Made by a program: the position numbers and the translations under genes. 64,000 nt of DNA from Deltaproteobacteria bacterium (GTDB lineage Bacteria > Myxococcota > JACRCW01), in assembly GCA_016218805.1 (NCBI GenBank), contig JACRCW010000026.1, positions 1-64,000 of the forward strand, given 5' to 3'. Position 1 is the stretch's first letter. The number at the start of each line of letters is the position of its first letter. The notes beneath the pieces were generated by a model. The model saw only the letters and a program-made list of their open reading frames with translations. It was not told where the DNA came from and did no database searches. This document shows, piece by piece, positions 28,350 through 63,776 of the stretch.

Positions 28350-28564
28350 GGGCGAAACGGTACCCTCCGGCCAGCGCGGCCGGTGGAAAAAGGGGGGTCT
28401 GGGTAGTGGCCCCCGGAACATCCGTCAAGGGGAAAGGCGCGGCGGGGCGCTCAACCTGTTGAATACAGTGGGCTTGCGGACGGGACCCCGCGTTTCCGTA
28501 TGGCCCTCCGCCGCGCACCAGGGGGTTGCCGTGGGTCCCAGCCCGCTGGCAGTTTGAAATCGCC

Positions 28565-31267
28565 GTGGCAACCCTGACGCCGTTTGCCCTGTCGCTTGGC
28601 CCGGGTGGTGACGTGTCCGTGGACGCGCTGCCGCCGGAGGACTCCACGCTGCCTGAGGACGTGGCCCGGGAGCTGGCCGCGGCGTTTGCACCCGGGAGCG
28701 GCGCGGGGCTGTTGCGTTTGGGCGCGGCGCACCGGGCCACCAGCCTGCCGCCCTCCGCCGCGTACTGGCGTGACCTGGCCGCGCAGTTCATGCACGCGCT
28801 GTGCGCGCTGCCCGGACTGGACCTGCTGTCCGCGGATGTGGAGGTGCCCTGGGCGGGTGAAGCGCCTGCCACGCTGGCGGAGCGTGGTCCGCCCATGCGC
28901 GGGCTGGAATACCTGGACGCCGCCGTGCTGCAGCGCGCCTGGCAGGCCATGCAGGACGCGCTGCGGCGGGCCGTGGGTGGCACGGGCCAGTCGGTCCAGG
29001 CGTGGCTGGGCGCGCAGGCGCCGCAATGGAACCAGGTGGGGCGCGTGTGCTTCCACCTGGCGGAGAACAAGCAGGATGAAACGCGGCCTTTTGCGTTCCT
29101 GGCCACGTACACCGCGTCACTGTCCGCGCAGGGCAAGCCGCAGCACCGGCCGCTGGGCCACGCGCTGACCGAATACGCGGGAAAAGGCCACCGCCAGGGA
29201 CTGTTGGCGCTGCTGCTGCCGGTGCAGAAGGCGGCGCGGTCGTCAGCGCTGGTGGCGCGCCTGCTGGATAGCGAGGAATTGTTCCAGCCGCTGCGCTGGA
29301 CGCCGGCGGAGGCGCACGCGTTCCTCAAGGATGCGGCATTGCTGGAGGAGTCCGGCGTGCTGGTGCGCGTGCCCGACTGGTGGCGGCGGCGGGCCCCGGC
29401 GCGCGTGGGGGTACAGGTCACGCTGGGCGCGGGCGCACCGTCCCGGCTGGGGCTGGAGGCGTTGCTGGATTTCAAGGTGAATGCCGCGCTGGACGGCGAT
29501 CCGCTGACCGCGGCGGAGTGGAGGCGGGCGCTGGCGTCCACGGACGGACTGGTCCGGCTCAAGGGACAGTGGGTGGAGGTTGATGCGGCGCGCCTGCGTG
29601 ATCTGATGGAGCACTGGCAGCGCGCGGAACGCGAACATGCGGACGGCGTTTCATTCCTGGAGGCGATGCGGCTGGTGTCCCGTGCCCCGTCCGCAGTGGC
29701 CGCCGCGGACGACGCCGAGAGCGCGCGGTGGACGGACGTCACGGCGGGCCCGTGGCTGCGCACGCTGCTGGAGGGCGCGCGCGCGCCGGAGGCGCTGGCG
29801 GCGGTGCGCCCGGGCAAGGACCTCAAGGCGAGCCTGCGCCCCTACCAGGACGCCGGGGTGCGGTGGCTGGGGCTGCTCAACGCGCTCAACCTGGGCGCGT
29901 GTCTGGCGGATGACATGGGATTGGGCAAGACCGTGCAGGTGCTGGCGCTGCTGCTGGCCCAGCGGTCCACCCGGCGCGGGACGCACCTGCTGGTGGTCCC
30001 CGCGTCACTGGTGGGGAACTGGCTTGCGGAAATGGAGCGTTTTACCCCCACGCTGCGCGTCATTGCCGTGCATTCTTCCGTCACCCCGGCGGCGGAGCTG
30101 GAGACGCTGGGACCGGCCGCGGTGGCGGACCAGGACGTGGTCCTCACCACGTACGGCATGCTCAACCGGTGCGCGTGGCTCAAGGACGTGGCCTGGGACA
30201 CGCTGGTGGTGGACGAGGCCCAGGCCCTCAAGAACCCCGGCGCGCGGCAGACGCGTGACGTCAAGGCGCTGCGGGCGCGCGCGCGCATTGCGCTCACCGG
30301 CACGCCCGTGGAGAACCGCGTGGGGGACCTGTGGTCCTTGTTTGACTTCCTCAACCCCGGCCTGCTGGGCACCCCGCGCGAATTCAAGGCATTCCTCAAG
30401 CGCCTGGGAGAGGGCGAACACGCGGATTACACGCCGCTGCGGTCCCTGGTGCGCCCCTACGTGCTGCGCCGGATGAAGAGCGACAAGCGCATCATCGACA
30501 CGCTTCCCGACAAGACGGAGGTGCGGCTGGCGTGCGGCCTGGTGAAGGAGCAGGCGGCGCTCTACCAACGCGGCGTGCGTGAGCTGGCCGAAGCGTTGGC
30601 GAAGAACCGGGAGGGGATCCAGCGCAAGGGCATGGTGCTGGCCTACCTCATGCGCTTCAAGCAGGTGTGCAACCACCCCTCACAGTGGCTGGGAGACGGG
30701 CGGTTTGCCCCCGCGGACAGCGGCAAGTTCCTGCGGCTGACAGAGCTGGCGGCGGACATTGCCCAGAAGCAGGAGAAGGTTCTGGTGTTCACGCAATTCC
30801 AGGAGATGACCGCGGTGCTGCATGACCTGCTGGCCGGTGTGTTCGGGCGGCCGGGCGCGGTGCTGGACGGCAAGACGCCCGTGAAGGCGCGCCAGGAGCG
30901 CGTGGCCCGGTTCCAGGAGGATCCCTCCGTGGGGTTCATGGTGCTCTCCGTCAAGGCGGGCGGCACCGGCCTCAACCTGACGGCCGCTTCGCACGTCATC
31001 CACTTTGACCGGTGGTGGAATCCCGCCGTGGAGAACCAGGCCACGGACCGTGCCTACCGCATTGGGCAGCACCGCAATGTGATGGTTCACAAGTTTGTGT
31101 GCCGCGGGACGGTGGAGGAGCGCATTGACGCGCTCATTGAATCCAAGCAGAAGCTGGCGCGGGACCTGCTGGACGCAGCGGGCGAAACGCTGCTCACCGA
31201 ACTGCAGGACGACGAGTTGATCCGCCTGGTCCAGTTGGACCTCGCCACGGCGCTTGAGGAGACCTGA
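28565..31267 (+). CDS. SNF2-family helicase/ATPase
   Basis: LRPYQ, LADDMGLGKT, DEAQ, LTGTPVEN, KAGGTGLNL, DRWWNPAVENQATDRAYRIGQ. Start codon uncertain (28526-28565). Confidence 0.93.
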   Translation: MATLTPFALSLGPGGDVSVDALPPEDSTLPEDVARELAAAFAPGSGAGLLRLGAAHRATSLPPSAAYWRDLAAQFMHALCALPGLDLLSADVEVPWAGEAPATLAERGPPMRGLEYLDAAVLQRAWQAMQDALRRAVGGTGQSVQAWLGAQAPQWNQVGRVCFHLAENKQDETRPFAFLATYTASLSAQGKPQHRPLGHALTEYAGKGHRQGLLALLLPVQKAARSSALVARLLDSEELFQPLRWTPAEAHAFLKDAALLEESGVLVRVPDWWRRRAPARVGVQVTLGAGAPSRLGLEALLDFKVNAALDGDPLTAAEWRRALASTDGLVRLKGQWVEVDAARLRDLMEHWQRAEREHADGVSFLEAMRLVSRAPSAVAAADDAESARWTDVTAGPWLRTLLEGARAPEALAAVRPGKDLKASLRPYQDAGVRWLGLLNALNLGACLADDMGLGKTVQVLALLLAQRSTRRGTHLLVVPASLVGNWLAEMERFTPTLRVIAVHSSVTPAAELETLGPAAVADQDVVLTTYGMLNRCAWLKDVAWDTLVVDEAQALKNPGARQTRDVKALRARARIALTGTPVENRVGDLWSLFDFLNPGLLGTPREFKAFLKRLGEGEHADYTPLRSLVRPYVLRRMKSDKRIIDTLPDKTEVRLACGLVKEQAALYQRGVRELAEALAKNREGIQRKGMVLAYLMRFKQVCNHPSQWLGDGRFAPADSGKFLRLTELAADIAQKQEKVLVFTQFQEMTAVLHDLLAGVFGRPGAVLDGKTPVKARQERVARFQEDPSVGFMVLSVKAGGTGLNLTAASHVIHFDRWWNPAVENQATDRAYRIGQHRNVMVHKFVCRGTVEERIDALIESKQKLARDLLDAAGETLLTELQDDELIRLVQLDLATALEET

Positions 31268-31270
31268 ACG

Positions 31271-32065
31271 ATGTACTGGAGCGACTGGACACCCCGCCCC
31301 ACCGTGGCACAGCGCCGCGCGCTGGCAGCCAAGGAAACCAGGAAACGCGCGCGCAAGGGCGAGACGCTCTCCCCCGTGGAGCCCATTGCGGGCCGCCAGG
31401 TCGCCGAGTCGTTCTGGGGCCAGGCCTGGTGCACGCACCTGGAGGGCCACGCGGATTACAGCAACCGGCTGCCGCGCGGGCGGTCCTACGTCCGCAACGG
31501 CTCCGTGCTGGACCTGAAGATCGCCGCCGGGAAGGTGCACGCGCTGGTGCAGGGATCTTCGCTGTACACGGTGGAGGTGACCATCCGGACGCTGGCGCCC
31601 AAGCGGTGGAAGGACCTGGTGGCGCGCTGTGCCGGACGCGTGGACTCGGTGGTGGAACTGCTGCGCGGCTCCGTTTCCGACGAGACCTTGCGTCATCTCA
31701 CGGACCGCAAGACCGGCATGTTCCCCGCCCCGGCGGAGATGTCATTCTCATGCAGCTGCCCGGACTGGGCGGACATGTGCAAGCACGTGGCCGCGGCGCT
31801 GTACGGCGTGGGCGCGCGCCTGGACCGCGCTCCGGAGCTCCTGTTCACCCTGCGCAACGTGGACCAGGCGGAGCTGGTGAAGACCTCCGTGGGGCTGGGC
31901 CGCAAGCAGGCCCGCGCGGCGCACGCGCTGCAGGGCGCGGACCTGGGCGCGGTGTTTGGGATTGAACTGGAGGGCGGCGCCCCGGCCGCCCCGCGCGCGC
32001 GGCGAGCCGCCCCGGCAAAGAAGAAGGCGCGGAAGAAGGCGGCGGGGACGCGCCGGGCCAGGTGA
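31271..32065 (+). CDS. SWIM zinc-finger protein
   Basis: RLPRGRSYVRNG, CSCPDWADMCKH; starts 3 bp after the SNF2 gene. Confidence 0.9.
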   Translation: MYWSDWTPRPTVAQRRALAAKETRKRARKGETLSPVEPIAGRQVAESFWGQAWCTHLEGHADYSNRLPRGRSYVRNGSVLDLKIAAGKVHALVQGSSLYTVEVTIRTLAPKRWKDLVARCAGRVDSVVELLRGSVSDETLRHLTDRKTGMFPAPAEMSFSCSCPDWADMCKHVAAALYGVGARLDRAPELLFTLRNVDQAELVKTSVGLGRKQARAAHALQGADLGAVFGIELEGGAPAAPRARRAAPAKKKARKKAAGTRRAR

Positions 32066-32075
32066 CCGCTTTGGT

Positions 32076-32106
32076 GAATAGTCTCCAGTCCGCGTGGAGG
32101 ATATTC
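32076..32106. promoter_or_regulatory. Putative enhancer (UAS), imperfect palindrome GAATAGTCTCCA-N7-TGGAGGATATTC
   Basis: The first 15 bp match 36858-36872 at 14/15 positions; lies upstream of a -24/-12 element. Confidence 0.6.
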
Positions 32107-32160
32107 GGCAGGCGTGAGGGGCGGCGTCCAAGATGGGCCGTCCGGACGCGCTGTGCCTGC

Positions 32161-32176
32161 GGGCACGCGAAGTGCT
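32161..32176 (+). promoter_or_regulatory. Sigma-54 -24/-12 promoter candidate GGGCACGCGAAGTGCT
   Basis: GG-N10-GC spacing with a GGCACG core, 38 bp upstream of the small ORF. Confidence 0.6.
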
Positions 32177-32213
32177 TGCACCGCACCCAACATCTTTCAC
32201 TCCGGAGGCTCCC

Positions 32214-32318
32214 ATGAAGATCCTGAAGCGCCCGCTGAGCAACGTGACGGTTGAACCCGCGCAGCCCACCCCGGCCGGCGGCAAGACCGGCTGCTGCAAG
32301 ATCAGCTGCTGCAAGTAG
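32214..32318 (+). CDS. 34-aa Cys-rich peptide MKILKRPLSNVTVEPAQPTPAGGKTGCCKISCCK
   Basis: GGAGG RBS at 32203-32207, GC3-rich codons, its own promoter candidate and a downstream terminator. Confidence 0.75.
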   Translation: MKILKRPLSNVTVEPAQPTPAGGKTGCCKISCCK

Positions 32319-32334
32319 GTCCACCTGGACCCAC

Positions 32335-32370
32335 GGCCCCCGTTGCCACCGCGGTGACGGGGGCCTTTGT
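32335..32370 (+). terminator. Intrinsic terminator hairpin
   Basis: GGCCCCCGT...ACGGGGGCC stem followed by TTTGT, between convergent genes. Confidence 0.7.
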
Positions 32371-32375
32371 AATTC

Positions 32376-33758
32376 CTACGCGCCCGGCTTGCGGCCCGCG
32401 CTGCCGCGCGAAATGCCGAACTTCTCCATGCGGTAGACCAGGATGTGCCGCGGCACGCGGAGGAAGCGGGCCGCCGCGGAGAGGTTGCCGCCATTGTGCT
32501 CAATGGCGTGGATGACCACGGCCTTCTCCAGCTCCTCCAGCGAAATACCGTCCGCCGGCAACCGCAACCGCGCCGGGTCCAGCTCCAGCGGCTCCGCCGC
32601 CATCGCGGGCGCGTCCTCGGCCGGCAGGTCGGTGGCGTCTAGGACGTCAGCGCGGCGCAGGGCCACCATCCGCTCCGCCACGTTGCGCAGTTCCCGCACG
32701 TTGCCGGGCCAGGCGCGCGCCTCCAGCGCGGCAAACAGGGCCGGGGTCACCTTCAGATCCGGGCCGCCGAATTGACGTACGTACCGGCCGAACAGCACCG
32801 GGATGTCCTGCCGGCGCGCGCGCAGCGCGGGCAGGCGCAGCGGCACCACGGAGAGGCGGAAGAACAGGTCCTGCCGGAAGCGGCCTTCGCGCACCAGGGA
32901 GGCCAGGTCCTGGTGCGTGGCGGCGATGATCCGCACGTTGACCGCAATGCTCCCGCCGCCCACCACGTCCACGCGGCGCTCCTCCAGCACGCGCAGCAGC
33001 TTGGCCTGCAGGGCCTCGTCCAGATCACCAATCTCGTCCAGGAACAGCGTGCCGCCGTCCGCCGCGGCAAACCGGCCCTGCCGCTCACGCGTGGCGCCGG
33101 TGAACGCCCCGCGCGCGTGGCCAAACAGTTCGGACTCCAGCAGGTCGCGCGGGATGGCGGCGCAGTTGAGCGCCACCAGCGGGGAGGCGGCCCGGTCGCT
33201 GCAGCGGTGGATCTCGCGGGCAATCACCTCCTTGCCCGTCCCGCTCTCGCCCAGCAGCAGCACCGTGGCGGAGGTCTGCGCCACCTGCCGGGCCTGCTGC
33301 AGCACCTCGCGCATGGACGCTGACACCGCAATGATCTCGTCGTGTTCAGTCACCCGCTGCTTGAGGCGCGCGTTCTCCGTGGCCAACCGCCAGTGCTCCC
33401 GCGCCTTGTCCACGGTCAGCAGCAGCTGGTCCTTGTGGAACGGCTTGGACACAAAATCGAACGCGCCCTTGCGCATGGCCTCCACCGCCAGCTCCACGCT
33501 CCCAAACGCGGTGATCATCAGCACCGGGGTCTGCGGGGCCAGGCGGCGCGCCGCGGCCAGCACCTCAAACCCGTCCGCGCGCGGCATCTTCACGTCGGTG
33601 ATCACCACCGCGGGCGGCGGCTGGTCGGTGAGGAACGCAATGGCCTCGGCGCCGTCAGCGCAGCGGATGACGTCACAGCCGGCGTCCCCCAGCTGGAAGG
33701 CAATCACCTCGCGCAGGCTGGGGTCATCCTCCACAACGAGCACGCGGTCACCCGGCAT
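32376..33758 (-). CDS. Sigma-54-dependent NtrC-family response regulator
   Basis: REC domain (VEDD, TDVKMP, KPF), [38 protein letters not shown]-terminal Fis-type HTH. Confidence 0.95.
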
Positions 33759-34965
33759 GGTCCCCTCCCGCAGCGGGCAGGTCCAACCGCAGCCGCGCAC
33801 CAGGCCCACCGCCCACCAGGCGCAGGTGGCCACCGTTGGCCTCCGCCAGCGAGTGGCTCACCGCCAGCCCCAGCCCGGTCCCCGTGTCCTTGGTGCTGAA
33901 GAACGGTTCAAAGATGCGTTCGGCCAGCTCCGGAGGAACACCCGGTCCGTCATCCGTCACGTCCACCACAACGCGGTCCCCGGCGGCGCGGGTCACGCGC
34001 ACCGCCACGTGGCCAGCGCCACCCAGCGCCTCCACCGCATTGATGACCAGGTTGAGCAGCACCTGCTGCACCTGCCCGGGATCCGCCCAGCAACGCGCGT
34101 CACCCGCCAGGTGCTCCACGGTCACCTCCGTCCGGGCCAGTGCCGCCTTGGGCGCCACCAGACCCACCACGCTGTCCACCACCTGGTCCAGGTCCACCGT
34201 GCGCGGGTCCGGGCGCGGCGGGCGGGCAAACTGCAGGAACGACGTCAGCACCCCGTTGAGCCGGTCCAGTTCCTTCAGCATGATCTCCGCCATGGCGTGC
34301 TTGCGGTGCCCGTCGGGAAAATCCTCCGCCAGCACCTCGGCGGCGCCGCGGATGGAACCCAGCGGATTGCGCAGCTCATGCGCCAGCCCGGCGCTGAGAC
34401 TCCCCAGCGCGGCCAGCTTCTCCGTGCGCACCAGCTGCTCCTGCACCGCTTCACGCGCGGCCAGCACCTGGCGCAGTTCTGCGGACAACGCCTCCGCGCG
34501 CGCCAGCGCCCGCGTCCACCGCTGGGACAGCAGCCCGGTCACCGCTCCCACGCCGTGGAACATCACAATCTCAAAGAACTTCTCCGTGGTGGAAGACGGG
34601 TCACTGGCCACCGCCATCCCCAACACGTGGATGTGCGCCTGGTGCTCAATGTCCCCGTGGTGGTGCCCCATCATGAACGCGTGCGGCGCGTACAACAGCG
34701 AACACCCCACCGCCGCCAACAGACCCCCGCGCGCACCCCAGGTCACCGCCGCCACGACGATGGGCAGGTAATACAGACGGCGGAACAGATCATGAAGCGC
34801 CCGGAGGTCCGGCCCGGTGAGGTAGTGCGCTGCACTGATCAGCAACGCGCCCGCGGCAACCGCCGCCAGCAACCCGGCGCGGTCCATGGGGGACGCCGCC
34901 GCGGGCGCCATGACGACGGGAACGGGCCCGGGCGGAGCAGGCTGGAGCAGCGGGGAGACAGACAT
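33748..34965 (-). CDS. Membrane sensor histidine kinase with His-rich sensor region
   Basis: TM segments with [21 protein letters not shown] and the loop [25 protein letters not shown]-box, DDGPG, FFSTK, GTGLGL. Start uncertain. Confidence 0.92.
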
Positions 34966-35096
34966 GGGTGCACGCACGTTAGTACGTTGGGTCCAGTGTG
35001 GCGTGCAGGTTGACCGGCATGCATCCGCCCCCCACCCGACGAGCCGTGCCGGCTCGTCGACCTCCCCCCGCAAGGCGGGGGGAGGCAAGCCGGGGC

Positions 35097-35993
35097 TCAA
35101 TGCGCGTGCGTGGCGGGCATGACCTCAAAGCGGTAGTTCGCCTCGTCGTCGGCGTCGCCGCCGGTGACCACGCAGTTGAGGTCATCCGTGAAGCCGACCT
35201 TGAGCCAGTAGGTCCCGGTCTCCATGAACATGTGTTTGGCGGTGTAGAGGCCCTTGCCCGCGTAGGTGGGCACCAGCGCCTCCACCACCACCGACTGCGC
35301 GCCCGTCCCGGACATCAGCGTCACGGTGGGCAGGTTGGACTGCAGCGCCGCCGGCAGCAGGTGGTCAAACTTGTTGGTCCACGGCTGCGTCGTGTTGATG
35401 GTCTCGTTGAACGAGCGCATCAGCTCGATGTTGAAGGTGACGTCCGTCCCGCTGGCCAGGATGATGGGCTCGGTGGTGTTCCACCGGATCTGGAACGCGT
35501 ACTCGTAGTCCGCATCCGCGTCGTTGCTGCAGAAGTAGTTCTCACCGCCGGCGCGTGAAGTCTCAAATGCGAACGCCGCAGCGTAGTGGTTTCCCTCCTC
35601 CTGGAACTCCACGCCGACGGTGTACGCCCCGAACGCGGTGAACATGGTGGTCCACTCATAGGTGCCGTCACCCTTGTCCTCCAGCACCCCAGCAGCCGGG
35701 GCCACCGTCTGCGTCTGGGTCGCCTTGGTGTCGCGGTAGGCCACATTGACCGGGAGGCCAGCCACCTTGGCGCAGCTGGTCACGTCCGTGTGGTCCGTGC
35801 ACTGCGCCATGTCATAGACGGTGAACACCACCTTGACGGACTTGAGGATGTGCGCGTGAACCGTCCCCACCTCCACCCGGTAGTCCTTGCGCGGCGGCAT
35901 CTCCATGCTGCCGCTGCCCGCCTGCTCCATGCAGGAGGCAAATGCGAGTGAAATGAGAACGGCGAGCGCCGCCTTGGCTGCGTGCTGCATCAT
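35097..35993 (-). CDS. Lipoprotein with two YtkA/FixH-like Ig-fold domains (putative metal chaperone)
   Basis: Lipobox FASC, Met-rich N-terminus (SMEMP), HAH motifs at both ends, two GxY-x-F-x3-GxY-type repeats (GDGTYEWTTMFTAFGAY; GKGLYTAKHMFMETGTY). Confidence 0.6.
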   Translation of the reverse strand: MMQHAAKAALAVLISLAFASCMEQAGSGSMEMPPRKDYRVEVGTVHAHILKSVKVVFTVYDMAQCTDHTDVTSCAKVAGLPVNVAYRDTKATQTQTVAPAAGVLEDKGDGTYEWTTMFTAFGAYTVGVEFQEEGNHYAAAFAFETSRAGGENYFCSNDADADYEYAFQIRWNTTEPIILASGTDVTFNIELMRSFNETINTTQPWTNKFDHLLPAALQSNLPTVTLMSGTGAQSVVVEALVPTYAGKGLYTAKHMFMETGTYWLKVGFTDDLNCVVTGGDADDEANYRFEVMPATHAH

Positions 35994-36017: not shown

Positions 36018-36728
36018 TCAGGCGTCCGGCGTCAGCCAGCGCCCGAGGGGAATGATGGGAAGTGCGTACAACGCGACGGCCACGAGTCCGAAGAACCCGG
36101 CGCACACCAGCGGCGACCATTGAATGACCCGCCAGACCTGGTCACCGACCACGGGCCGGTAGCCGCCCACGGTGGGGAAGTTGCTGGGCGAGGTGGACCA
36201 CAACAGCGCCCACGCCACCACGTGGCCGGCGGCCAGCGCGGTGGCCATCCAGCCCCACGGCGGCGCGGTGATGACCGCCAGCGCCACCTTTCCCGGCGAC
36301 GCGCGCGGTTCGGCGGGGGGCACTGCGGGAGCCGGGGCCGGGGCCACCTCAGGCACCGGTGCGGGCGCAGCGGCCGCTGGCGTCATCTCCACCTCCACGC
36401 GTGTGACCACGCCCTCCTGCACCACCAGTTGGCGCTCCACGGACCCTCCGCCCGGAACGTCCACCCGGAGCGCGTGCGGGCCCACCGCCACACCCTCAAC
36501 GCGCAACGGCGTCACGCCGACGGGCTGTCCATCCACGGTCACCGCCGCCCCGGGCGTCCCCGTGGCCACCTCCAGGGTCCCGACGGGTGCCGGCGCTGCG
36601 GCGGCCTCAGGCGGTGGCGGCGGGGGAGTCACCTCCGCCTGCGCTCGGGCCGCACCGACGGTAAGCAGTGCAAATCCCGTCACAAGCCAACGCACTGCCC
36701 AACCGTTCTTGCGCGTTCCCGACGCCAT
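36018..36728 (-). CDS. PEGA-domain membrane protein
   Basis: Signal peptide, GTLEVATGTPGAAVTVDGQPVGVTPL PEGA motif, C-terminal TM helices. Confidence 0.75.
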   Translation of the reverse strand: MASGTRKNGWAVRWLVTGFALLTVGAARAQAEVTPPPPPPEAAAAPAPVGTLEVATGTPGAAVTVDGQPVGVTPLRVEGVAVGPHALRVDVPGGGSVERQLVVQEGVVTRVEVEMTPAAAAPAPVPEVAPAPAPAVPPAEPRASPGKVALAVITAPPWGWMATALAAGHVVAWALLWSTSPSNFPTVGGYRPVVGDQVWRVIQWSPLVCAGFFGLVAVALYALPIIPLGRWLTPDA

Positions 36729-36772
36729 GGCCCGTCCGTTCTGCCCGGCAGGAGCCGCGGCGCGCCGCACTG

Positions 36773-36788
36773 AGCAAGGTGCGTGCCC
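36773..36788 (-). promoter_or_regulatory. Sigma-54 promoter GGGCACGCACCTTGCT (leftward)
   Basis: Reverse complement of AGCAAGGTGCGTGCCC; near-consensus TGGCACG-N4-TTGCW, 45 bp upstream of the 36728 start. Confidence 0.75.
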
Positions 36789-36857
36789 ACTTGGACGGAA
36801 CGCGGCCGTCGACGAGGAACCGGCAACCCGACGGGCGGCGGCCAAACGGCGAGTGAA

Positions 36858-36886
36858 GAATAGTCTCGAGTCACTGCGGACTATGC
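36858..36886. promoter_or_regulatory. Palindromic operator/UAS gaATAGTC-N13-GACTATgc
   Basis: Centre at about 36872 is 84-85 bp from the -24 GG of both divergent sigma-54 promoters. Confidence 0.7.
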
Positions 36887-36954
36887 TCCGCTGCGAGCGG
36901 CCCGCCTGCGACGCGTCAACGGCTTCGTCGAGGACAGGGCGCTCTTGCCCACCG

Positions 36955-36970
36955 TGGCACATGGCTTGCG
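36955..36970 (+). promoter_or_regulatory. Sigma-54 promoter TGGCACATGGCTTGCG (rightward)
   Basis: Matches TGGCAC-N5-TTGC; 31 bp upstream of the cupredoxin ATG, which has a [10 protein letters not shown]. Confidence 0.8.
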
Positions 36971-37000
36971 ATGCGGCCCGCGTCCTGACGGAGGAGCCGC

Positions 37001-37612
37001 ATGGTGCGTCACGCAAGCAGAATGGGAGTGATACTGGGCTGGGCCGTCCTGGTGGCGGGGCCCGCGCTGGCACAGGCCCCTGCCGCGGGCGGCGCGCTTG
37101 CCGGCGAAGTGGCCGCAAAACCCGCGAAATACCGCGAGCACGTGGTGGTCAGCGTGGAGAAGGTGCCCGGTGCGTTCCGGCCGCCGGCGCAACCGGCGCA
37201 GTACGATCAGCGCGGCATGCAGTTCATCCCGCACGTGATGGCGGTGGTCCGCGGGACCACGGTGAAGTTTCTCAACAATGACAATGTCAGCCACAACGTC
37301 TTCACGCCGGACGGAGACAAGTACAACCTGGGAACGTGGGGCCAGGGCCAGTCACAGACGCGCGTGTTCCCGCGGTCCGGCGTGTACCGGCAGCTGTGCA
37401 ACGTGCATCCCGAAATGGAGGGATTCATCGTTGTGCTGGATAACCCGTATTTCGCGGTCACCGGCGCGGACGGGCGCTTCCGGATTGAGAACATCCCGCC
37501 GGGCACGTACACGGTGCGCGCGTGGAGCGAGAAGCTGGCGGGCGCCACGCAGCAGGTCACCATCACGGCGGGTGGTGCGGCCACCGCGCGGTTTGAGCTC
37601 AAGAAGCCATGA
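37001..37612 (+). CDS. Secreted cupredoxin-fold (type-1 copper) protein with C-terminal carboxypeptidase-regulatory-like domain
   Basis: Signal peptide; VKFLNNDNVSHNVF and CNVHPEM supply His/Cys/His/Met ligands; DGRFRIENIPPGTYTVRAW. Confidence 0.85.
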   Translation: MVRHASRMGVILGWAVLVAGPALAQAPAAGGALAGEVAAKPAKYREHVVVSVEKVPGAFRPPAQPAQYDQRGMQFIPHVMAVVRGTTVKFLNNDNVSHNVFTPDGDKYNLGTWGQGQSQTRVFPRSGVYRQLCNVHPEMEGFIVVLDNPYFAVTGADGRFRIENIPPGTYTVRAWSEKLAGATQQVTITAGGAATARFELKKP

Positions 37613-38895
37613 GCCGCTCCCGGTGGACCTGGCCGGTGGCGGCCGTGGCGGTCGTCGTCATTCTGGTGGCGTGGGTGCCACCGGCAGGCGCGGTGCCATC
37701 CTTTGCGCGGCGCTACGGGACCAGCTGCCAGACGTGCCACGTGGTCTTTCCCAAGTTGACGCCCTTTGGTGAAGCGTTCCGGCGCAACGCGTACCATTTC
37801 CCGGACGGACAGGATGAGGACTACCGCCGCAAGGAACCGCAGAAGATGGGCGCGGACGGATACAAGGACGTGTTTCCGTGGGCGGTGTGGCCCGGCGAAA
37901 TCCCCGCCGACCTTCCCATCAGCGCCATTGCCGCGGGACAGGTGGTGGGGAATCCGTCAGAAACCACGCGGGACAAGAAAGTGGTCCTGGCGGGCAGTGC
38001 CAGCGTCAACGTCAATGCCACCTTTGGAGAATGGCTGGCGGTGTGGGTGGGTGCGACGGCGCGCGGCACCACCGCGGGGACGCTGGAGCTGGGGTTTGAT
38101 CGCGCGTTCTTCGTCGTGTCGCCGGGACGTGGCCCGTGGGGCAACGTGCGCCTGGGCATGATTGAACCGGGGGTGCTGAGCTTCACCACGCACCGTTCCA
38201 TTGGCCCCAACCCGTGGGTGCTCACCGCCGCCGTGGGGAACAACCAGTTTGCACTGGAGCCGGCGCAGTTTGGGGCGGAGTGGAGCGGCGTGGGCCTGGA
38301 CGGGCGCGGCACGTTCACGCTGGGCGTGGTGGATGGCGCGGGCAACCAGGTGGGTCCCCCCACCGACGTGTACGGGCGCATTGCCAGCAAGTGGGGGGGC
38401 ATGCGCCTGGATGGCGTGGAGGGTGACGGGCAGGTGCGCCTGGCGGACCCCGCACCGTGGCGCGAGTGGAGCGTGCTGGTCGGCGCGTTTGTCTATTCAG
38501 GGCGCGCCACCGTGGGCACGGAGGGAACCGCGTGGCAGACGGACCGGTTCACGCTGGCCGGCGCGGACGTCAACGCGCAACTGCGGGACGCAAACGTCAT
38601 TGCCGCGTACACGTACACGCGGAACAGCCGCCCGTTTCTGCTGGACCCGTCCCTGGGCACGGACACGCACAACGTCATGCTGCAGGTGGATTACGTGGTA
38701 TTTCCGTGGCTGGTGCCCAGCCTCCGCGCGGAGCGGCGCGTCGTGAACGGCGCGTCGCAGGACCGCGTGGCCACGTCGCTGTACGTGCTGCTGCGGGCCA
38801 ATGTGCGGACACAGCTGCTGGCGGTGGTGGAACGCGCGCCGGACAACACGGTGACCTTCAACCGCCTGCAGGCCGGGCTCACCGTTGGATTCTGA
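37609..38895 (+). CDS. Cyc2-like fused monoheme cytochrome c / outer-membrane beta-barrel
   Basis: Signal peptide then VPSFARRYGTSCQTCHVVFPKLTPFGEAFRRNAY (PxFAR, CxxCH, PxL), beta-strand-rich body, C-terminal Phe (LTVGF). Confidence 0.8.
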   Translation: MSRSRWTWPVAAVAVVVILVAWVPPAGAVPSFARRYGTSCQTCHVVFPKLTPFGEAFRRNAYHFPDGQDEDYRRKEPQKMGADGYKDVFPWAVWPGEIPADLPISAIAAGQVVGNPSETTRDKKVVLAGSASVNVNATFGEWLAVWVGATARGTTAGTLELGFDRAFFVVSPGRGPWGNVRLGMIEPGVLSFTTHRSIGPNPWVLTAAVGNNQFALEPAQFGAEWSGVGLDGRGTFTLGVVDGAGNQVGPPTDVYGRIASKWGGMRLDGVEGDGQVRLADPAPWREWSVLVGAFVYSGRATVGTEGTAWQTDRFTLAGADVNAQLRDANVIAAYTYTRNSRPFLLDPSLGTDTHNVMLQVDYVVFPWLVPSLRAERRVVNGASQDRVATSLYVLLRANVRTQLLAVVERAPDNTVTFNRLQAGLTVGF

Positions 38896-38902
38896 GGGAC
38901 TC

Positions 38903-39703
38903 ATGCCGCGCTTCCTACCCGCCCTGGTGCTGCTGCTTGCCGCGTGTGACGACGGCACCGTCAACCGCCACGTGACGCTGGAGCACCAGGCGGGCGCGTT
39001 GCCCCGCTGCACCAGCACCGTGGTGGGGGACGCGCTGCATCTCAGCGTGGACCGCATGGAACCGCTCAAGCCGGACCGGGGACTGGTGGCGTTTGCGGTG
39101 CACCATGACGCGTGGAACTGGCTGGGCGCCGTGGAGCCGGGCAGCCCGGCCACGTTCCGCGGGCAGCCCATCAGCGTCACCTGGACGGACGTGACCCAGC
39201 TGGTCATCTCCGAGGAACTCTTGACCGACACGCCCACGCAACCGGGGTCCATGGTGCACTTCCGCGGCCGGCCCGGAGAAATGCTGGGAATCGGCGCTGA
39301 GGGCGAACTCACGGAAGAGGCCGTGGCGGGCGCCTCCGCACACGCGACGACGGTGGACGATACCGTGGAGCTCACCTACGCGTTGTTGCCCGCGCCGGGT
39401 CCGGGGCGGTTCTTTGCGGCGTGGCTGTTTCCTGACGGCACCACCGCCGCCACCGGGACGCCCGGCGGGGGCGGTCACACGCACGGGCTGACCTTGGTGC
39501 AACCGCTGCTCTTGGGCCGCATCGGCACGTCAGCCACGGAGCTGTTCACCATTGATGGCGCGGTGACCGGGTATCACCAGCTGGCCATCACGCTGGAACT
39601 GGAGAACGGCGTGGCCGCGGCCGCGCTCACCAACATTGTGTTCACGGGGACGCTGCCCACGGAGGCGGCGGGCGGGACAGCCGCCGCCGCCCACGAGCAC
39701 TGA
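38903..39703 (+). CDS. Lipoprotein with His motifs (RskA-C-like fold suspected)
   Basis: Lipobox LLAAC; GHTHG and terminal AHEH; LPAPGPGRFFAAWL...LAITLE pattern. Confidence 0.6.
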   Translation: MPRFLPALVLLLAACDDGTVNRHVTLEHQAGALPRCTSTVVGDALHLSVDRMEPLKPDRGLVAFAVHHDAWNWLGAVEPGSPATFRGQPISVTWTDVTQLVISEELLTDTPTQPGSMVHFRGRPGEMLGIGAEGELTEEAVAGASAHATTVDDTVELTYALLPAPGPGRFFAAWLFPDGTTAATGTPGGGGHTHGLTLVQPLLLGRIGTSATELFTIDGAVTGYHQLAITLELENGVAAAALTNIVFTGTLPTEAAGGTAAAAHEH

Positions 39704-39714
39704 CAGGCGGACGC

Positions 39715-40209
39715 ATGGCGCTCATTGACGATCTCAAGGACCCGCCCCCGCCGGAAGAGCTGGACCGGCGGCGGATGCTGACGCTGCTGGGGACCGGTGC
39801 GCTGGGCGTGGCCACGGCGGGCGCCACGGTGGAGACGCTGCACTTCCTGGAGCCCGCGGTGGTGTACGAACCGGAACGCCGCGTCGCCGTGGGGCGGCCG
39901 GGCGATCTCAGCGTGGGCGCGGTGAAGGTGGTGGCGTCGCACCGTTTGTACGTTGTTCGTGAGCCGGCCGGCGTGTTTGCGCTCTCCGCGGTGTGCACGC
40001 ACCTGGGGTGCATCACGCGGTGCCGCCCGGACCGGACGGGCTTTGACTGCCCGTGCCACGGCAGCCGCTTTGCGCTGGATGGGTCCGTGCAGGCCGGTCC
40101 CGCGCCGCGCCCGCTGCGCCGCCTCCACGTTGAAGTGGACCAGGACACGCTGGTGGTGGACGCGGCCCGGGTGATTGCGCCCGGATCCCTGCTGCGGGTG
40201 CCCGCATGA
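39715..40209 (+). CDS. Rieske 2Fe-2S subunit
   Basis: Tat-like RRRML plus TM; CTHLGC and CPCHGS boxes. Confidence 0.95.
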
Positions 40210-40940
40210 AGACGCTGGCGGAGCGCATTGCGGACAGCCCCCTGTGGAAGTCCATCATCCGGCACGGCTACCCGGACACCAACAAGAACCGGTCCTTGCT
40301 GGTGTTCAGCAACCTGTTCCTGCACATCCACCCGGTGAAGGTGCGGGCGCGCGCCATTGCGTTCTGGCGCACGCTGTACCTGGGCGGGCTGAGCGCCGCG
40401 CTGTTCTGGGTGCTGACGCTCACCGGGTTGCTGCTGATGTTCTACTACCGGCCGGCAGTGCCGCAGGCGTACCAGGACATGAAGGACCTGGAGTTTGTTG
40501 TCACGCCGGGGATGTTCCTGCGCAACATGCACCGGTGGGCCGCGCACGCCATGGTGGCATTTGTGTTTGTGCACATGGCGGTCACGTTCTACCGCGGCGC
40601 CTACCGCCACCCGCGTGAATTCAACTGGGTGATCGGCGTGGGGCTCCTCGTGGGGACGCTGCTGCTCTCCTACACGGGCTACCTGCTGCCGTGGGACCAG
40701 CTGGCCTATTGGGCGGTGACGGTGGGCTCCAACATGGCGGAGGCCACGCCGCTGTGGGGTGACCAGATCAAGCTGCTGCTGCTGGGCGGCCGCTCCATCG
40801 ACGAGCCGACGCTGATCCGGTTCTACGTGCTGCACTGCGTGGGACTGCCACTGGTGGTGGTGGTGGGAATCGCGCTGCACATCTGGCGCATCCGCAAGGA
40901 CGGCGGGCTGCACCTGCCACCGCGGGAGCGTGCGCCGTGA
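40206..40940 (+). CDS. Cytochrome b N-terminal (b6-like) subunit
   Basis: RNMHRWAAH...[22 protein letters not shown]...LHIW; four heme-b His ligands present. Confidence 0.95.
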
Positions 40941-41608
40941 CGGGTCCCTCCACGCCCGCCACCGCGGCCCAACCGCGGCCACCGGAGCGCGCGCCGGACG
41001 ACGACGAAGGGCAGGCCATGACGTTTCCGCACCTGCTGGTGCGCGAAGTGGTGGCGGGCCTGGCGCTGTGCATCCTGCTGGTCTGGGTCTCCGTGCTGTT
41101 TGATGCACCGCTGGAGGAGATTGCCAACCCGGACAAGACGCCCAACCCGGCCAAGGCGCCGTGGTACTTCCTGGGGCTGCAGGAACTGCTGCATTACTAC
41201 CCACCGGTCATTTCTGGCGTGTTCATGCCGCTGCTCGTCGTGGTGCTGTTGGCCATCATCCCGTACTTTGACATGAACCACCTGCGCGCCCCCATGTGGC
41301 GCGGTGACCGGCGGACCACCGCAGGCCGCGCGTGGCTGGCCATCCTGGTGCTGACGGCACTGCTGCTGTTCACCGGTGCGCACCCGGTGTGGCCGCTCAT
41401 CATCCCGCTGTGGCTCACGGGGCTGGGTGCATCCGCGGGAGCGGTGCGGTGGGAAAGCGCGGCTTTCCGCTGGCTGGGCGCGCGCAGCGTCGCGTTCTGG
41501 GCGTTCACCTGGTTCCTGCTGTGCTCGGTGGCGCTCACCGTGGTGGGCGTGTGGTTCCGCGGCCCGGGGTGGAGCTTCACGCTCCCGTGGGTGGACGGGG
41601 TGTTTTGA
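40937..41608 (+). CDS. Cytochrome b C-terminal (subunit IV-like) protein
   Basis: [28 protein letters not shown] (PEWY-equivalent), multiple TM helices, RGPGW. Confidence 0.92.
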
Positions 41609-43566
41609 TGGAACGGCCGCCCGCACCGGACCTGCACCTGGGTGCCCTGCTGCGGGCGTTTGCCGTGCTTTCCATGGTGCTCCTGGTGAGCCTGGTGGTG
41701 GCGGCGCGCGTGAGCCGGCAGACTGAATGGCGCGCTATCCAGGAGCGCTACAACGCGCGCGCGACAGCCGCGGGAAAAGCACCCATTCCCGTCGGCATCC
41801 AGCAGACGTGGCGGCCGGAGCTGGGCATCACGGACCGCTGCGGCAGTTGCCACCTGGGCATGGTGGGTGCACCGCTGGAGGGGGACGCGCTGTTCGCCGC
41901 GCATCCGCCGGTGGTCCACGCGCCGCGGGAGTTGGGTTGCACCGTGTGCCATGGCGGCCAGGGCCGCGCGACAACCCGGGAAGCCGCGCACGGCAACGTA
42001 CGTTTCTGGGACGAGCCCATGCTGGCGCGCGCGGACTTCCAGGCCGGGTGCGGCAGCTGCCACACCCACGTGCGCCTCCCCGCCCCCGCGCTGGCGGCGC
42101 GCGGGGCCAAGGTGGTGGAGGAGCAACAGTGCGGTGCGTGCCACCAGGCAACGCGGCGGCTGGATACGGTTGGATTGCGCGGAATCACGCCGGACTGGCA
42201 CGAGCGTCACATTGGCCTGGTGGAGGGCGAGTTTGGCTTTGCCCCGCTGCCCGACGAGGATCTCCCCGCGGTGGACGCGTTCCTGGCCACGCGCGTGGGT
42301 GCGCCGCGCCTGGTGGAGGCCCGCCTGCTGATGGAGAGTCTGGGCTGCCGCGGCTGCCACCGCATTGGCGGGGCGGGTGGCGAGGAAGGCCCCGACCTTT
42401 CCTCCGTGGGGCGCAAGCCGGCGGGAGATTATGACCTCACCGAGGTGCGCGGACCGCGCACGCCCCGCCAGTACCTGTACGAGCACTTCCTGGAGCCGGG
42501 ACGGCTGGCCCGCAACAGCCGGATGCCCGCGCCCGCCGTGACGCCCCACCAGGCGGATCTGCTCACGTTTGCCATGCTGGCGCTGCGTACGCGCCCGCTG
42601 CCGGAAGCGTTGCTGCCGCGGGACCGCGTCCGCGCGGTGAAGCTGGGCGAGCGCGACTTCCCGACGGACGGTGAGTCCCTGTTCCGCTCCTTCTGCAGCG
42701 GCTGCCACGGGGCGCAGGGTGAAGGCCGCACCTGGGCGCCGGTCCCCGCGGTGATGCCCGGCATTGGCCGCGCCGAGTTTCTGGCGCTGGCGGATGACAC
42801 GTTCATCCGCAAGGCCATCACCGACGGGCGGCCGGGCCGCATGATGCCGGCCTGGGGGAGCATGGAAGGCGGGCTGCGCCGTGCGGAGATCGACGCGCTG
42901 GTGACCTACGTGCGCACGTTGCAGCCCGCGGCGGTGGCGTACGACGCGGTGCTGGCGGCGGCGCCGGATCCCGCGCTGGGGCGGGAGGAGTTTGCGCGCT
43001 CCTGCGTGCCGTGCCACGGCGAGCACGGCGAAGGCTCACCCATTGCGCCGCCGCTGGCCGCACCGGACAACCAGGCGGTGCGCAGTGACAACGCCATCTA
43101 CGGCACGCTGGTCAACGGCGTCGCCGGAACCGCCATGGGCGCATTCCGGCAGTTCAACGCGGTCACGCTCAGCTCCCTGGTGGCGACGGTCCGGGCCCTG
43201 CCGCCGGTGGCGGCCTCCCGCACCGCCTGGAAGCCCGCGCGCGGGGACGCCGCCGCCGGCGCCGCGCTGTTCGGGAAGCACTGCGGCACCTGCCACGGGG
43301 ACAACGCCGTTGGGAAGGAGGGGCCGGCGCTCTCCCATCCCGCGTTTCAGGCGGCCGCGTCTGACGGGTATCTTGCCGCCACCGTCATCCGCGGGCGGCC
43401 ACAGGCGGCCAAGGCCATGCCCGGATTTGGCCAGGCCGGCCCGGACCACGCACGCCTGTCACCTGACGACGTGGCCGCGCTGGTGGCGTTCCTGCGCGGC
43501 CTGGTGGCCCCGGCCGGAACCGAGCACCCCGCGCCCGCCCAGGCCGGGGACACCCGTCTCCCGTAG
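41608..43566 (+). CDS. Membrane-anchored octaheme cytochrome c
   Basis: Eight CxxCH motifs: CGSCH, CTVCH, CGSCH, CGACH, CRGCH, CSGCH, CVPCH, CGTCH; N-terminal TM; TGATG coupling to the previous gene. Confidence 0.93.
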   Translation: MERPPAPDLHLGALLRAFAVLSMVLLVSLVVAARVSRQTEWRAIQERYNARATAAGKAPIPVGIQQTWRPELGITDRCGSCHLGMVGAPLEGDALFAAHPPVVHAPRELGCTVCHGGQGRATTREAAHGNVRFWDEPMLARADFQAGCGSCHTHVRLPAPALAARGAKVVEEQQCGACHQATRRLDTVGLRGITPDWHERHIGLVEGEFGFAPLPDEDLPAVDAFLATRVGAPRLVEARLLMESLGCRGCHRIGGAGGEEGPDLSSVGRKPAGDYDLTEVRGPRTPRQYLYEHFLEPGRLARNSRMPAPAVTPHQADLLTFAMLALRTRPLPEALLPRDRVRAVKLGERDFPTDGESLFRSFCSGCHGAQGEGRTWAPVPAVMPGIGRAEFLALADDTFIRKAITDGRPGRMMPAWGSMEGGLRRAEIDALVTYVRTLQPAAVAYDAVLAAAPDPALGREEFARSCVPCHGEHGEGSPIAPPLAAPDNQAVRSDNAIYGTLVNGVAGTAMGAFRQFNAVTLSSLVATVRALPPVAASRTAWKPARGDAAAGAALFGKHCGTCHGDNAVGKEGPALSHPAFQAAASDGYLAATVIRGRPQAAKAMPGFGQAGPDHARLSPDDVAALVAFLRGLVAPAGTEHPAPAQAGDTRLP

Positions 43567-62402: not shown

Positions 62403-63776
62403 CTACTCTCGGTCGAATTGGATCCCCAGCTTGCCGAGCTTTTCGTACAGCGTGGTGCGGTGGATGCCGGCCAGTTGCGCCGCCTTCTGCACGCTGCCGC
62501 CGGTCTGCCCCAGCAGCCGCGTGAAGTAGCTGCGCTCAAACTCGTCGCGCACGTGGCGGTAATTCCCAGACGCCACCTCCAGCGCGGGACCCGCCACCGC
62601 GTGCTCGCCCAGCTCGGACGGCAGGTCCTCCGGCCGGATCATGGGCGTGGCGCACACCAGGCTGGCGCGTTCCACCACGTGCTCCAGCTCGCGCACGTTG
62701 CCGGGCCAGCGGTACTCCATCAGGCACCGCATGGCTTCCGGTCCCACCTGCGGCGGCTCCCGCCCCAGGCGTTTCTGCAACTGCGCCAGGAAGTGCTGCA
62801 CCAGCAGCGGCACGTCCTGCGGCCGGTCCCGCAGCGGCGGCAGCACCACGCGCACCGCGTTGATCCGGTAGTAAAGGTCCTGCCGGAACTTCCCCTCGCG
62901 CACCAGCTTCTCCAGGTCCTGATTGGTGGCGCACACCAGCCGCACGTCGGTATGCGCCAGCCGGCGGCTGCCCACCGCGTAGTACTCACCGTTCTGCAGC
63001 ACGCGCAGCAGCTTGGGTTGCAGCGCCAGGGACAGGTCACCAATCTCGTCAAGAAAGAACGTGCCGCCGTTGGCCTCCGCGCAGAAACCGTCACGCGAGC
63101 TGACCGCGCCGGAGAATGCGCCCTTTTCGTGACCAAACAGCTCGCTTTCCATCAGGTGCTCCGGGATGGCGGAGCAGTTGAGTGACACAAACGTCTTCTG
63201 CGCGCGGTTGCTGAGGTGGTGGATGTACTTGGCGAACAGGTCCTTGCCCGTGCCGGACTCCCCCTGGATGAGGATGGAGATGTCCGTGGTCGCCACGCGC
63301 GCGATGAGGTCCATCACCTGGGTCATGGCGCGTGAGCGGCAGATGATGTTGTCACGCGAGAACTTGTCGGCGACCTCCTGGCGCAGGCGGCGGTTCTCGG
63401 CGACGAGCTCGCGGTGCGCCACGGCGCGCTCGATGACCAGTTCCAGCTCGGACATCTCAAACGGCTTGCGCACGTAATCAAACGCACCGTTTTTCATGGC
63501 CTGCACGGCGGTCTCAATGGTGGCAAACGCGGTGACAATGATGACGGGCGCGTCCGGGTCAATGCGGCGGAACCGCTCCATGCCCTGCAGGCCGTCCACC
63601 TTGGGCATGGCCAGGTCCGTGACCACCACGTCCGGGCGGAAGGCGCGCATGGTTTCCTCGGCCTCCTCCACGGCGGCCGCGGTCCGCACCTCATAGCGCG
63701 CCGGGTCCAGCCAGCGCGCCAGCATCTCGCGGGCGCTCTTCTCGTCATCCACGACGAGGATCCTGGCCGTCTTCAT
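62403..63776 (-). CDS. Sigma-54-dependent NtrC/AtoC-family response regulator
   Basis: REC domain (VVDDE, TDLAMP, KPF), [34 protein letters not shown]. Confidence 0.95.

Follow-up and report, generated by a model that had tools for sequence, protein, structure and literature searches.

Double-cysteine peptides of Myxococcota, encoded near GMC-family flavoenzymes and sensor genes, as candidate metal-induced RiPP-type precursors

What is the role of a 34-residue peptide ending in CCKISCCK whose short gene stands as a transcription unit of its own beside a two-component system? The question arises in a 64-kb stretch of contig JACRCW010000026.1 (hereafter the window) from a Myxococcota genome of 6,433,327 bases (G000), in which a first-pass annotation had proposed a metal-inducible cytoplasmic micro-metallothionein or thiol buffer or, alternatively, the precursor of a peptide made on the ribosome and modified after translation (RiPP) with a double-glycine leader and a maturase encoded elsewhere. 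Coordinates without a contig label are positions within the window, C numbers are contigs of the genome named, and G001, G026, G037, G039 and G085 are other Myxococcota genomes in a set of 401. The anatomy of the gene, its family, the selection acting on it, its synteny and a shared regulatory site are established here. The reading we favour, at a probability of roughly one in two, is that the peptide is a metal-induced RiPP-type precursor whose cysteines would be oxidised by a GMC-family flavin adenine dinucleotide (FAD) enzyme, by analogy with ThaO and TheO, to give a copper-binding product.

A genuine gene underlies the 34-residue open reading frame (ORF), and its product belongs to a small, unnamed family of Myxococcota peptides. 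Relatives were sought by profile and pattern searches in the 401 genomes of the phylum, in 1.84 billion representative proteins and in 5.8 billion proteins. A first search with the single peptide over 61 genomes gave its own paralogue as the only significant match (E 3e-5), with the G037 copies at E ~0.3; the pattern search of the 401 genomes found the two copies in G037, and a profile of nine members recovered eight genes in five genomes, two each in G000, G001 and G037. A two-peptide profile run against the representative proteins added two more peptides of 32–33 amino acids (aa), ending in CCKIGCCK and CCKISCCK, and a word-seeded profile search of the 5.8 billion proteins gave 13 clusters of 31–40 aa at E ≤1 among 176 candidates, one member coming from a Myxococcota record. 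The description of the gene as unannotated holds only in part: gene callers do predict the peptide, although the window copy carries no source name and relatives that bear one are called only 'hypothetical protein'.

Other searches gave no further member. In public genome contigs, a peptide pattern that required Gly or Thr-Gly before the first pair gave 51 matches, none confirmed, and GCCKxxCCK-stop, whose Gly misses real members, gave 40 stretches that were all out of frame or unrelated. In public metagenome contigs both stretches matching TGCCKxxCCK-stop were unrelated, the Thr-Gly of this pattern likewise missing real members, and a word search with a 40-codon reference returned the peptide itself only. 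The peptide has no match in Pfam (E ≤1) or NCBIfam (E ≤0.1), and so none to a metallothionein model either; a literature search on CC-repeat peptides, in which the core sequence was not searched as a word, found none. The family is thus without a name or described function in the libraries and literature searched.

Spurious ORFs are common in high-GC DNA (107 ORFs of at least 25 aa in 9.5 kb; the window has a G+C content of 70%), and the layout would also suit a small regulatory RNA, or an ORF that arose by chance with a promoter-like site on one side and a terminator on the other. Such a non-protein origin is very improbable on the evidence of the relatives, which conserve the peptide and not the DNA. 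The paralogue on contig C163 of the source genome encodes 33 aa with the same TGCCKISCCK end behind a QPTPA linker in unrelated flanking DNA, and the core Ser codon is AGC in the window gene and TCC in the paralogue. The two G001 paralogues differ at 9 of 41 codons, with seven synonymous against two non-synonymous changes, and are identical at 114 of 123 ORF positions, whereas their flanks (89 of 142 and 100 of 140) agree no more than unrelated GC-rich DNA. All members have an aligned Met after a ribosome site and end just past the last Cys pair. Rfam returned no family at threshold, with two sub-threshold matches, the better at 20.5 bits against a gathering score of 50. Among the contigs of four DNA runs, one of 329 nt from run X8, another groundwater data set, stems from a related strain and includes the peptide gene. 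It aligns to 32196–32498 with 22 differing letters and three gaps; of the 12 differences listed, a single one (32268 A>T, Thr19 to Ser) falls in the ORF, and the other 11 fall 3' of it, within the terminator region and the regulator gene's end, the hairpin loop accounting for two. A 61-codon in-frame extension from 32133 was rejected, its start lying upstream of the promoter and homologues giving it no support.

What the members share is concentrated at the N-terminus. In alignments of nine to ten members a leader of the form M-K-x-L-x-x-R/K-x-L-x-N-V-x-V-E/Q is conserved over differing cores, and the features common to all core types are this N-terminus (M-K-x-L, then L-K-N-V-K-V-E) and the vicinal cysteines. 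Members found upstream of GMC homologues carry CCGVIR three times (G039), CCGNVN/CCGNIR/CCGN (G001) or HCQIRCCK (G085); most members end in CCK, two in CCGN and one in CCGVIRQ. A public protein of 40 aa, P0018, has three CCKIS/CCK units in tandem, which shows the CC-x3 unit to be the repeating module.

Two maturation chemistries and one regulatory role were considered and set aside. A double-glycine cleavage site at the end of the leader fails because the GG is replaced by NG, QG, ES or DT in relatives; a lanthionine formed through Ser31 is unlikely, since Gly or Thr substitutes there; and a Cys-sensing attenuator leader, suggested by the paralogue preceding an EamA exporter, is at odds with a window copy that has no downstream same-strand gene and with the conservation of the non-Cys leader.

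The family is tied to a flavoenzyme. In all five genomes that have the family, one copy lies less than 1 kb from a gene for a GMC-family FAD enzyme, which is directly downstream of the peptide gene in G037, G039 and G085, divergent in G001, and separated from it by an EamA exporter gene in G000 (C163). Homology between the enzymes spans the whole protein (49% identity between G000 and G037); they carry the Pfam domains GMC_oxred_N and GMC_oxred_C, and the catalytic His (H411) is invariant in all ten sequences. With the FAD fingerprint beginning inside the first 30 residues, they have no signal peptide. A conserved Cys triad (PSCD, PCGC) was dismissed as a family feature, being present in 3 of the 10. 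At E ≤1e-50, ten homologous genes occur in nine of the 401 genomes, and five of the ten have a family peptide within 1 kb.

Structure prediction points the same way. A complex of the C163 enzyme, FAD and the window peptide scored 0.85, 0.84 and 0.85, with controls at 0.00, 0.02 and 0.00; the runs agreed in at least 56% of contacts, and the partner pLDDT (predicted local distance difference test) was at least 62. Of 157 solved complexes 116 attained the mark used for this score, as did 2 of 215 mismatched pairs, a rough calibration given that the present models used their own alignments and included the ligand. Confident contacts join peptide residues 1–6, 8–18 and 30 to enzyme residues 378–403, 147–150, 256–258 and 282–289. 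The model thus suggests docking of the leader on the GMC enzyme and says little on the placement of the cysteines.

These observations bear directly on an alternative, an unmodified cytoplasmic buffer that would hold Cu(I) or a different soft metal directly on its four to six CC-pair thiols once the two-component system has induced the gene, the flavoenzyme being no more than a neighbour under the same control. A core rich in Cys with vicinal pairs, the lack of a signal peptide, a monocistronic, inducible-type window gene with no enzyme beside it and the copper-handling neighbourhoods of relatives would all suit a buffer, but its most widely conserved part is the Cys-free leader (LKNVKVE), needless for metal buffering, and the copy kept next to the GMC gene in all five genomes, the predicted docking of that leader, the exporters adjoining three loci and the lack of a metallothionein match in Pfam and NCBIfam are left without a reason. 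We consider this buffer unlikely. The plain micro-metallothionein of the first-pass annotation is accordingly not favoured; its other proposal, a RiPP precursor matured from elsewhere in the genome, fits better once the double glycine is given up, with a candidate maturase that does lie on another contig, beside the paralogue, and is a GMC-family FAD enzyme rather than a radical SAM or YcaO protein.

The high complex score is also what a stable subunit would give. The peptide might be a redox partner or small subunit of a GMC dehydrogenase, bound by its leader and relaying FAD electrons through its CC pairs as dithiol/disulfide, iron-sulphur or copper centres, much as MftG re-oxidises mycofactocin or as the cluster loop serves FAD-glucose and fructose dehydrogenases. 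The closest solved relatives of the enzyme are the large subunits of these two dehydrogenases (E 6e-17 and 8e-15), and its best NCBIfam matches, far below threshold, are MftG models (43–68 bits against cutoffs of 300–400; top match 67.8 against 387.45). The CCGNNNCMPIC loop of those relatives, which binds a 3Fe-4S cluster, aligns to a Cys-free stretch of the enzyme, and the G001 peptides read CCGNVNCCGN; the window operon described below is rich in electron carriers as well. The likeness to CCGN amounts to four residues, however, and is missing in CCKISCCK members, the CC pairs vary from one and a half to three with a spacing of three to four residues, GMC homologues occur without the peptide, and the window copy is transcribed alone from an inducible-type promoter far from any GMC gene. 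A redox partner is thus distinctly doubtful.

How the window copy is expressed can be followed base by base (Table 1). The upstream motif, the sigma-54-type promoter, the GGAGG ribosome site, the 34-codon ORF and the terminator all lie where the first-pass annotation had placed them, and they make up the complete monocistronic unit that it described. Sigma-54 promoters follow the consensus TGGCACG-N4-TTGCW; GGGCACGCGAAGTGCT agrees with it at 10 of 12 specified positions, with 38 nt from the -12 GC to the ATG. Across both strands of the whole genome 477 sites score at least 10/12, or about 0.007 expected per 200 nt, and a chance placement just before the peptide ribosome site is therefore unlikely. 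The same consensus is quoted in an account of a myxobacterial copper system (PMC3707914). The terminator hairpin (-33.1 kcal/mol, z = -4.5) was equalled in stability by none of 200 shuffles and, as its T-run lies on the plus strand only, ends the peptide transcript.

Upstream, an AT-rich 15-mer, GAATAGTCTCCAGTC (32076–32090), lies within site 1. Written as GAATAGTCTCSAGTC, with C or G allowed at position 11, the 15-mer occurs with at most one mismatch at exactly two places in the genome, against none for the reversed control pattern, and both adjoin the NtrC-type two-component system of the window; with up to three mismatches there are 40 matches, namely the two exact ones, none with one mismatch, two with two and the rest with three. 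Sites 1 and 2 agree at 25 of 36 positions. In the 272-bp gap 36729–37000, site 2 is flanked at a distance of about 85 bp by each of two sigma-54-type promoters that point away from each other, one facing the electron-carrier operon and the other, an addition to the first-pass annotation, facing the kinase/regulator operon. Because this unique shared site stands some 70–85 bp from sigma-54-type promoters at both places, the peptide gene and the cupredoxin/Cyc2-like operon very probably have a common regulator, as the annotation had proposed in placing them in one regulon. Judged from sequence features, each element of a sigma-54 unit is present: a -24 GG and -12 GC with 10-nt spacing, a gene for an enhancer-binding protein and an upstream site. 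On the simplest reading, one enhancer-binding protein drives its own operon, the electron-carrier operon and the peptide gene, the divergent promoters at site 2 implying autoregulation of the kinase/regulator operon.

Table 1. Features of the peptide gene unit and of the neighbouring two-component system and operons in the window.
Feature	Position	Strand	Details
Upstream activator site 1	32076–32106	+	imperfect palindrome GAATAGTCTCCA-N7-TGGAGGATATTC; centre ~71 bp 5' of -24 GG
Sigma-54-type promoter GGGCACGCGAAGTGCT	32161–32176	+	-24 GG 32162–63, -12 GC 32174–75; GG-N10-GC
Ribosome-binding site GGAGG	32204–32208	+	5 nt 5' of ATG at 32214
Peptide gene	32214–32318	+	34 codons + TAG (32316–32318); leader ~residues 1–18, Pro-rich linker, C-terminal CCKISCCK
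Intrinsic terminator	32335–32375	+	13-bp stem (32335–32365), 5-nt loop, TTTGTAATT tail
NtrC-type sigma-54-dependent response regulator	32376–33833	-	receiver, AAA+ sigma-54 activator, Fis-type helix-turn-helix (Pfam); convergent with peptide gene
Sensor histidine kinase	33748–35100	-	His/Met-rich segment (kinase by Pfam)
Lipoprotein	35097–35993	-	no known family; kinase/regulator operon
PEGA-domain membrane protein	36021–36728	-	first region of kinase/regulator operon, upstream of kinase
Sigma-54-type promoter GGGCACGCACCTTGCT	36773–36788	-	11/12; faces PEGA/lipoprotein/kinase/regulator operon
Upstream activator site 2	36858–36888	+	GAATAGTCTCGAGTC at 36858–36872; ATAGTC 36860–65, GACTAT 36879–84
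Sigma-54-type promoter TGGCACATGGCTTGCG	36955–36970	+	10/12; cupredoxin operon
Putatively co-regulated operon	37001–43566	+	cupredoxin, Cyc2-type protein, unknown gene, cytochrome b, eight-haem cytochrome c
Cupredoxin fused to CarboxypepD_reg domain	37001–37612	+	first gene of operon
Monohaem porin-like Cyc2-type protein	37609–38895	+	428 aa; signal peptide; one CxxCH at residue 40
Cytochrome b	40134–40940	+	cupredoxin operon
Eight-haem cytochrome c	41308–43566	+	cupredoxin operon

The kinase carries its His/Met-rich stretch at about residues 139–165 of the listed ORF, where a sensor loop would be, and Pfam detected no periplasmic or HAMP domain in it. The porin-like protein would be a fused cytochrome-porin, Cyc2-type by its architecture of signal peptide, single CxxCH and porin-like clusters; its nearest Atlas clusters are unnamed, one having Porin_O_P on 12% of its members.

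Two related systems extend the pattern. On G001:C24 the peptide gene follows a kinase and a regulator 47% and 67% identical to those of the window, with the His-rich segment kept in place, and the same half-sites, AGACTATTC and GAATATTCTCCA, lie upstream of it; by sequence this system belongs to the same subfamily, and it is not called an ortholog because it is about equally close to both G000 paralogues. The second of these, on G000:C43 (kinase 51%, sigma-54 regulator 67% identical to those of the window), adjoins an OEP-CusB(HMBD)-CusA-GMC operon and has a tandem GAATAGTC some 50–70 bp before an 11/12 sigma-54 promoter, TGGCACGCTGTTGGCT, facing the gene for an 828-aa secreted protein of no known family (L101 motifs at 4962, 4983, 10185 and 18298); this probably makes up a sister regulon, its operator half-site being almost identical to that of the window. 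At G037:C50, where the peptide gene precedes a HAMP-PAS kinase, the homologue has a sigma-54-type promoter, TGGAACGGACCTTGCT, at 11/12.

In all three genomes with two copies, then, the second copy lies beside sensor genes, and such a neighbour probably drives the window copy. The same association would be expected of a small feedback regulator that, once induced, binds the kinase or regulator and tunes the response, as MgrB does for PhoQ and ZraP for ZraSR. The kinases concerned differ in type, however (His-rich membrane type in G000 and G001, HAMP-PAS in G037), the peptide has no membrane segment, and GMC synteny, repeated cores and predicted docking would go unexplained; we regard feedback regulation as quite improbable.

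The signal to which the favoured precursor might respond is suggested by the neighbourhoods of the relatives, which fit a link to metal and to copper handling. The GMC homologue closes an OEP-CusB-CusA operon, its CusB with heavy-metal-binding domains, in G000:C43 and G026:C101 and precedes one in G001:C334. The G039 peptide/GMC pair has nearby a multicopper oxidase, an MFS carrier, a thioredoxin-like protein and a BIM1/LPMO-like copper protein; a multicopper oxidase lies 8 kb from the G001:C24 peptide gene, and the G085 locus encodes a CoxB-like cupredoxin-cytochrome c. Transporters (EamA, MFS, TonB-dependent receptor) occur at three of the five GMC-linked loci, and S8 subtilases near two peptide loci (G085 and G037:C50). 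That the gene is metal-inducible, as first supposed, gains from the Cus-type efflux, multicopper oxidases and cupredoxins around the relatives, which fit a metal link. The homologue search that the annotation had suggested has thus yielded a conserved ORF with GMC and copper-handling neighbours.

Several further observations concern these loci. Behind the peptide gene of G001:C334 (L099:12581–16312, plus strand) lie two family-less small proteins of 155 and 169 aa and then a TonB-dependent receptor with an N-terminal TonB_C domain and a CarboxypepD_reg domain. At G037:C50 (L084:9726–9800, minus strand), a 534-aa ORF just upstream of the peptide gene has a Gly/Cys-rich tail (DCGTGGCATPGCTATGCNFCWGG...) and no Pfam match. 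In the window, 28526–32065 on the plus strand encodes a SNF2-family helicase with DUF3670 and then a SWIM zinc-finger protein with a Lys/Arg-rich tail, whose gene ends 10 nt 5' of activator site 1; a second sigma-54 response regulator lies at 62403–63941 on the minus strand, with a further histidine kinase from 63794 on, at the window end. Searched with the window kinase, the assembly yields at least 28 matching kinases at E ≤1e-20.

Put together, the precursor reading would run as follows. A metal signal, most likely copper, would be sensed by the adjacent kinase through its His/Met-rich segment, and the NtrC-type regulator, to judge by site, spacing and neighbourhood, would bind 32076–32106 and 36858–36888 and fire three sigma-54 promoters, those of its own operon, of the cupredoxin/Cyc2-like/cytochrome operon and of the monocistronic peptide gene. 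The leader (residues 1–18) is predicted in silico to dock on the cytoplasmic GMC-family enzyme encoded on C163 behind the paralogue and the EamA exporter. By analogy with ThaO and TheO, the enzyme may oxidise the vicinal cysteines, plausibly turning the thiol by way of a thioaldehyde into a thiazole; in each pair the second Cys would cyclise onto the first one's carbonyl, so that a CC pair would become a thiol adjoining the nitrogen of a thiazole and could serve as a soft N,S donor. With two or three of these units the product, leader attached or removed, could bind Cu(I) and be handled by exporters; a released product would fit the presence of exporters and of the TonB-dependent receptor, and the S8 proteases near two loci could cut the leader. 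In this light the family would be a variant, in a metal-homeostasis role, of the newly described GMC-dependent kind of RiPP. A bolder extension, which we put forward tentatively, would make these peptides copper chelators of a new ribosomal class, a counterpart of methanobactin produced by a flavoenzyme, with GMC-made thiol-plus-thiazole pairs, copper-sensing sigma-54 induction, EamA/MFS export and, in some, TonB-dependent re-uptake; CCKISCCK would then give an N2S2 Cu(I) site, and three-pair members more.

Several points weigh against the oxidised, copper-binding precursor. The family is tiny, and its members do not amount to many independent observations. Five of the ten GMC homologues have no family peptide nearby, and in G026 none was found genome-wide at E ≤0.01; since homologues occur without the peptide, the enzyme has, or also has, another role. 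In the complex model, Ile30 is the only core residue placed confidently, and the cysteines are not placed at the flavin. Beside the window copy there is neither a GMC gene nor an exporter or protease, and its link to the C163 enzyme is drawn from the identical TGCCKISCCK core, a similar leader and the structure model. Glycine adjoins the pairs in the window peptide (TGCCK) and in G001 and G039 (CCG) and is absent in G037 (TTCCK, STCCK) and in P0006 (VSCCK), a point that matters in the comparison with TheO below. No good sigma-54 promoter was found at the C163 paralogue or at the G001 or G039 copies. Finally, given its Cyc2-like porin-cytochrome and its b- and c-type cytochromes, the window operon would suit the sensing of iron or redox state as well as that of copper.

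Should the favoured reading prove true, a stand-alone GMC enzyme paired with double-cysteine peptides of 31–43 residues would widen GMC RiPP chemistry, which would also gain a physiological role from the copper-handling setting and the metal-type sigma-54 switch. If, moreover, the product chelates copper, it would represent a second, flavin-dependent route to ribosomal copper binders beside the iron-dependent MbnB/MNIO route, and metal homeostasis in groundwater and soil Myxococcota would have a further, new component. The two-gene system is small enough for a direct test, and the unique palindromic site offers a defined putative operator for an uncharacterised enhancer-binding protein.

Among known systems, the nearest is that of ThaO and TheO. 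In the part of the account available, these GMC oxidoreductases install thiazoles at Cys of leader-bearing RiPP precursors without ATP and with a loss of 20 Da, GMC enzymes having been unknown in RiPP biosynthesis before their description in 2026 (PMC13083261). As in the present family, the ThaA/ThaO and TheA/TheO pairs of Acidobacteriota combine an N-terminal leader, a Cys-rich C-terminal core and an adjacent GMC-family FAD enzyme; their clusters, like the loci here, have no YcaO or ATP-dependent cyclodehydratase and have transport and regulation genes nearby, and their enzyme-precursor complexes were modelled too (PMC13083261). Both are lanthipeptide-linked, with a class II lanthionine synthetase of which none was seen in the loci annotated here, although TheO is active without the synthetase of its cluster (PMC13083261). 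Their targets are Cys in Gly-Cys-Gly, TheO requiring the flanking glycines G-1 and G2, whereas here vicinal CC pairs are repeated and some members lack Gly (PMC13083261). The present family differs further in its phylum, its copper-homeostasis setting and its sigma-54 control, and the enzymes are likened by GMC family and gene layout. A second source, again for the part available, states that GMC oxidases can convert thiols to thioaldehydes and mentions thio-oxazole copper RiPPs (PMC13638132). A literature search on GMC enzymes in RiPPs returned as relevant only these two papers (PMC13083261, PMC13638132) and those on mycofactocin, and one on GMC oxidoreductases with Cys-rich precursor peptides returned nothing closer.

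For the regulatory side, the closest counterpart is CorSR of Myxococcus xanthus, a copper-responsive sigma-54 two-component system driving a cluster of cupredoxin, multicopper oxidase, CopA and cytochrome c genes (PMC3707914). As is proposed for the window system, and as far as the available part of that account goes, it acts from several sigma-54 promoters and also switches on its own genes, its targets including copper enzymes, a cupredoxin rich in His and a cytochrome of c type (PMC3707914). Compared by description, CorS has a periplasmic sensor and a HAMP domain, whereas the window kinase has neither in Pfam but carries the His/Met-rich segment, and that part of the account describes no small Cys peptide in the curA cluster (PMC3707914). 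Mycofactocin offers a further likeness in its small peptide, MftA, with a conserved C-terminal core, and its GMC-family MftG, according to the part of the source available (10.1101/2024.03.26.586840). The enzymes here do not reach the MftG cutoffs, however, and the loci showed no radical SAM gene, MftC included, and neither MftB nor MftD; MftG, moreover, acts on the finished cofactor and not on the precursor.

Bacterial metallothioneins (SmtA/BmtA, MymT) are likewise small and Cys-rich and are metal-induced, as the peptide gene here may be; they differ from the present peptides, which have no match to their families, a conserved non-Cys leader, a candidate enzyme partner and far fewer thiols. 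Methanobactins and bufferins are copper RiPPs made by MbnB/MNIO enzymes. Neither DUF692/MbnB nor MbnC was among the Pfam matches of the neighbours scanned, which cover part of the locus ORFs, and the enzyme here is a flavoprotein. The proposed product would nevertheless share with methanobactin a tiny precursor, the conversion of cysteines into heterocycle-plus-sulphur pairs that chelate Cu(I) and expression tied to copper, in a setting where an exporter and a TonB-dependent receptor are near.

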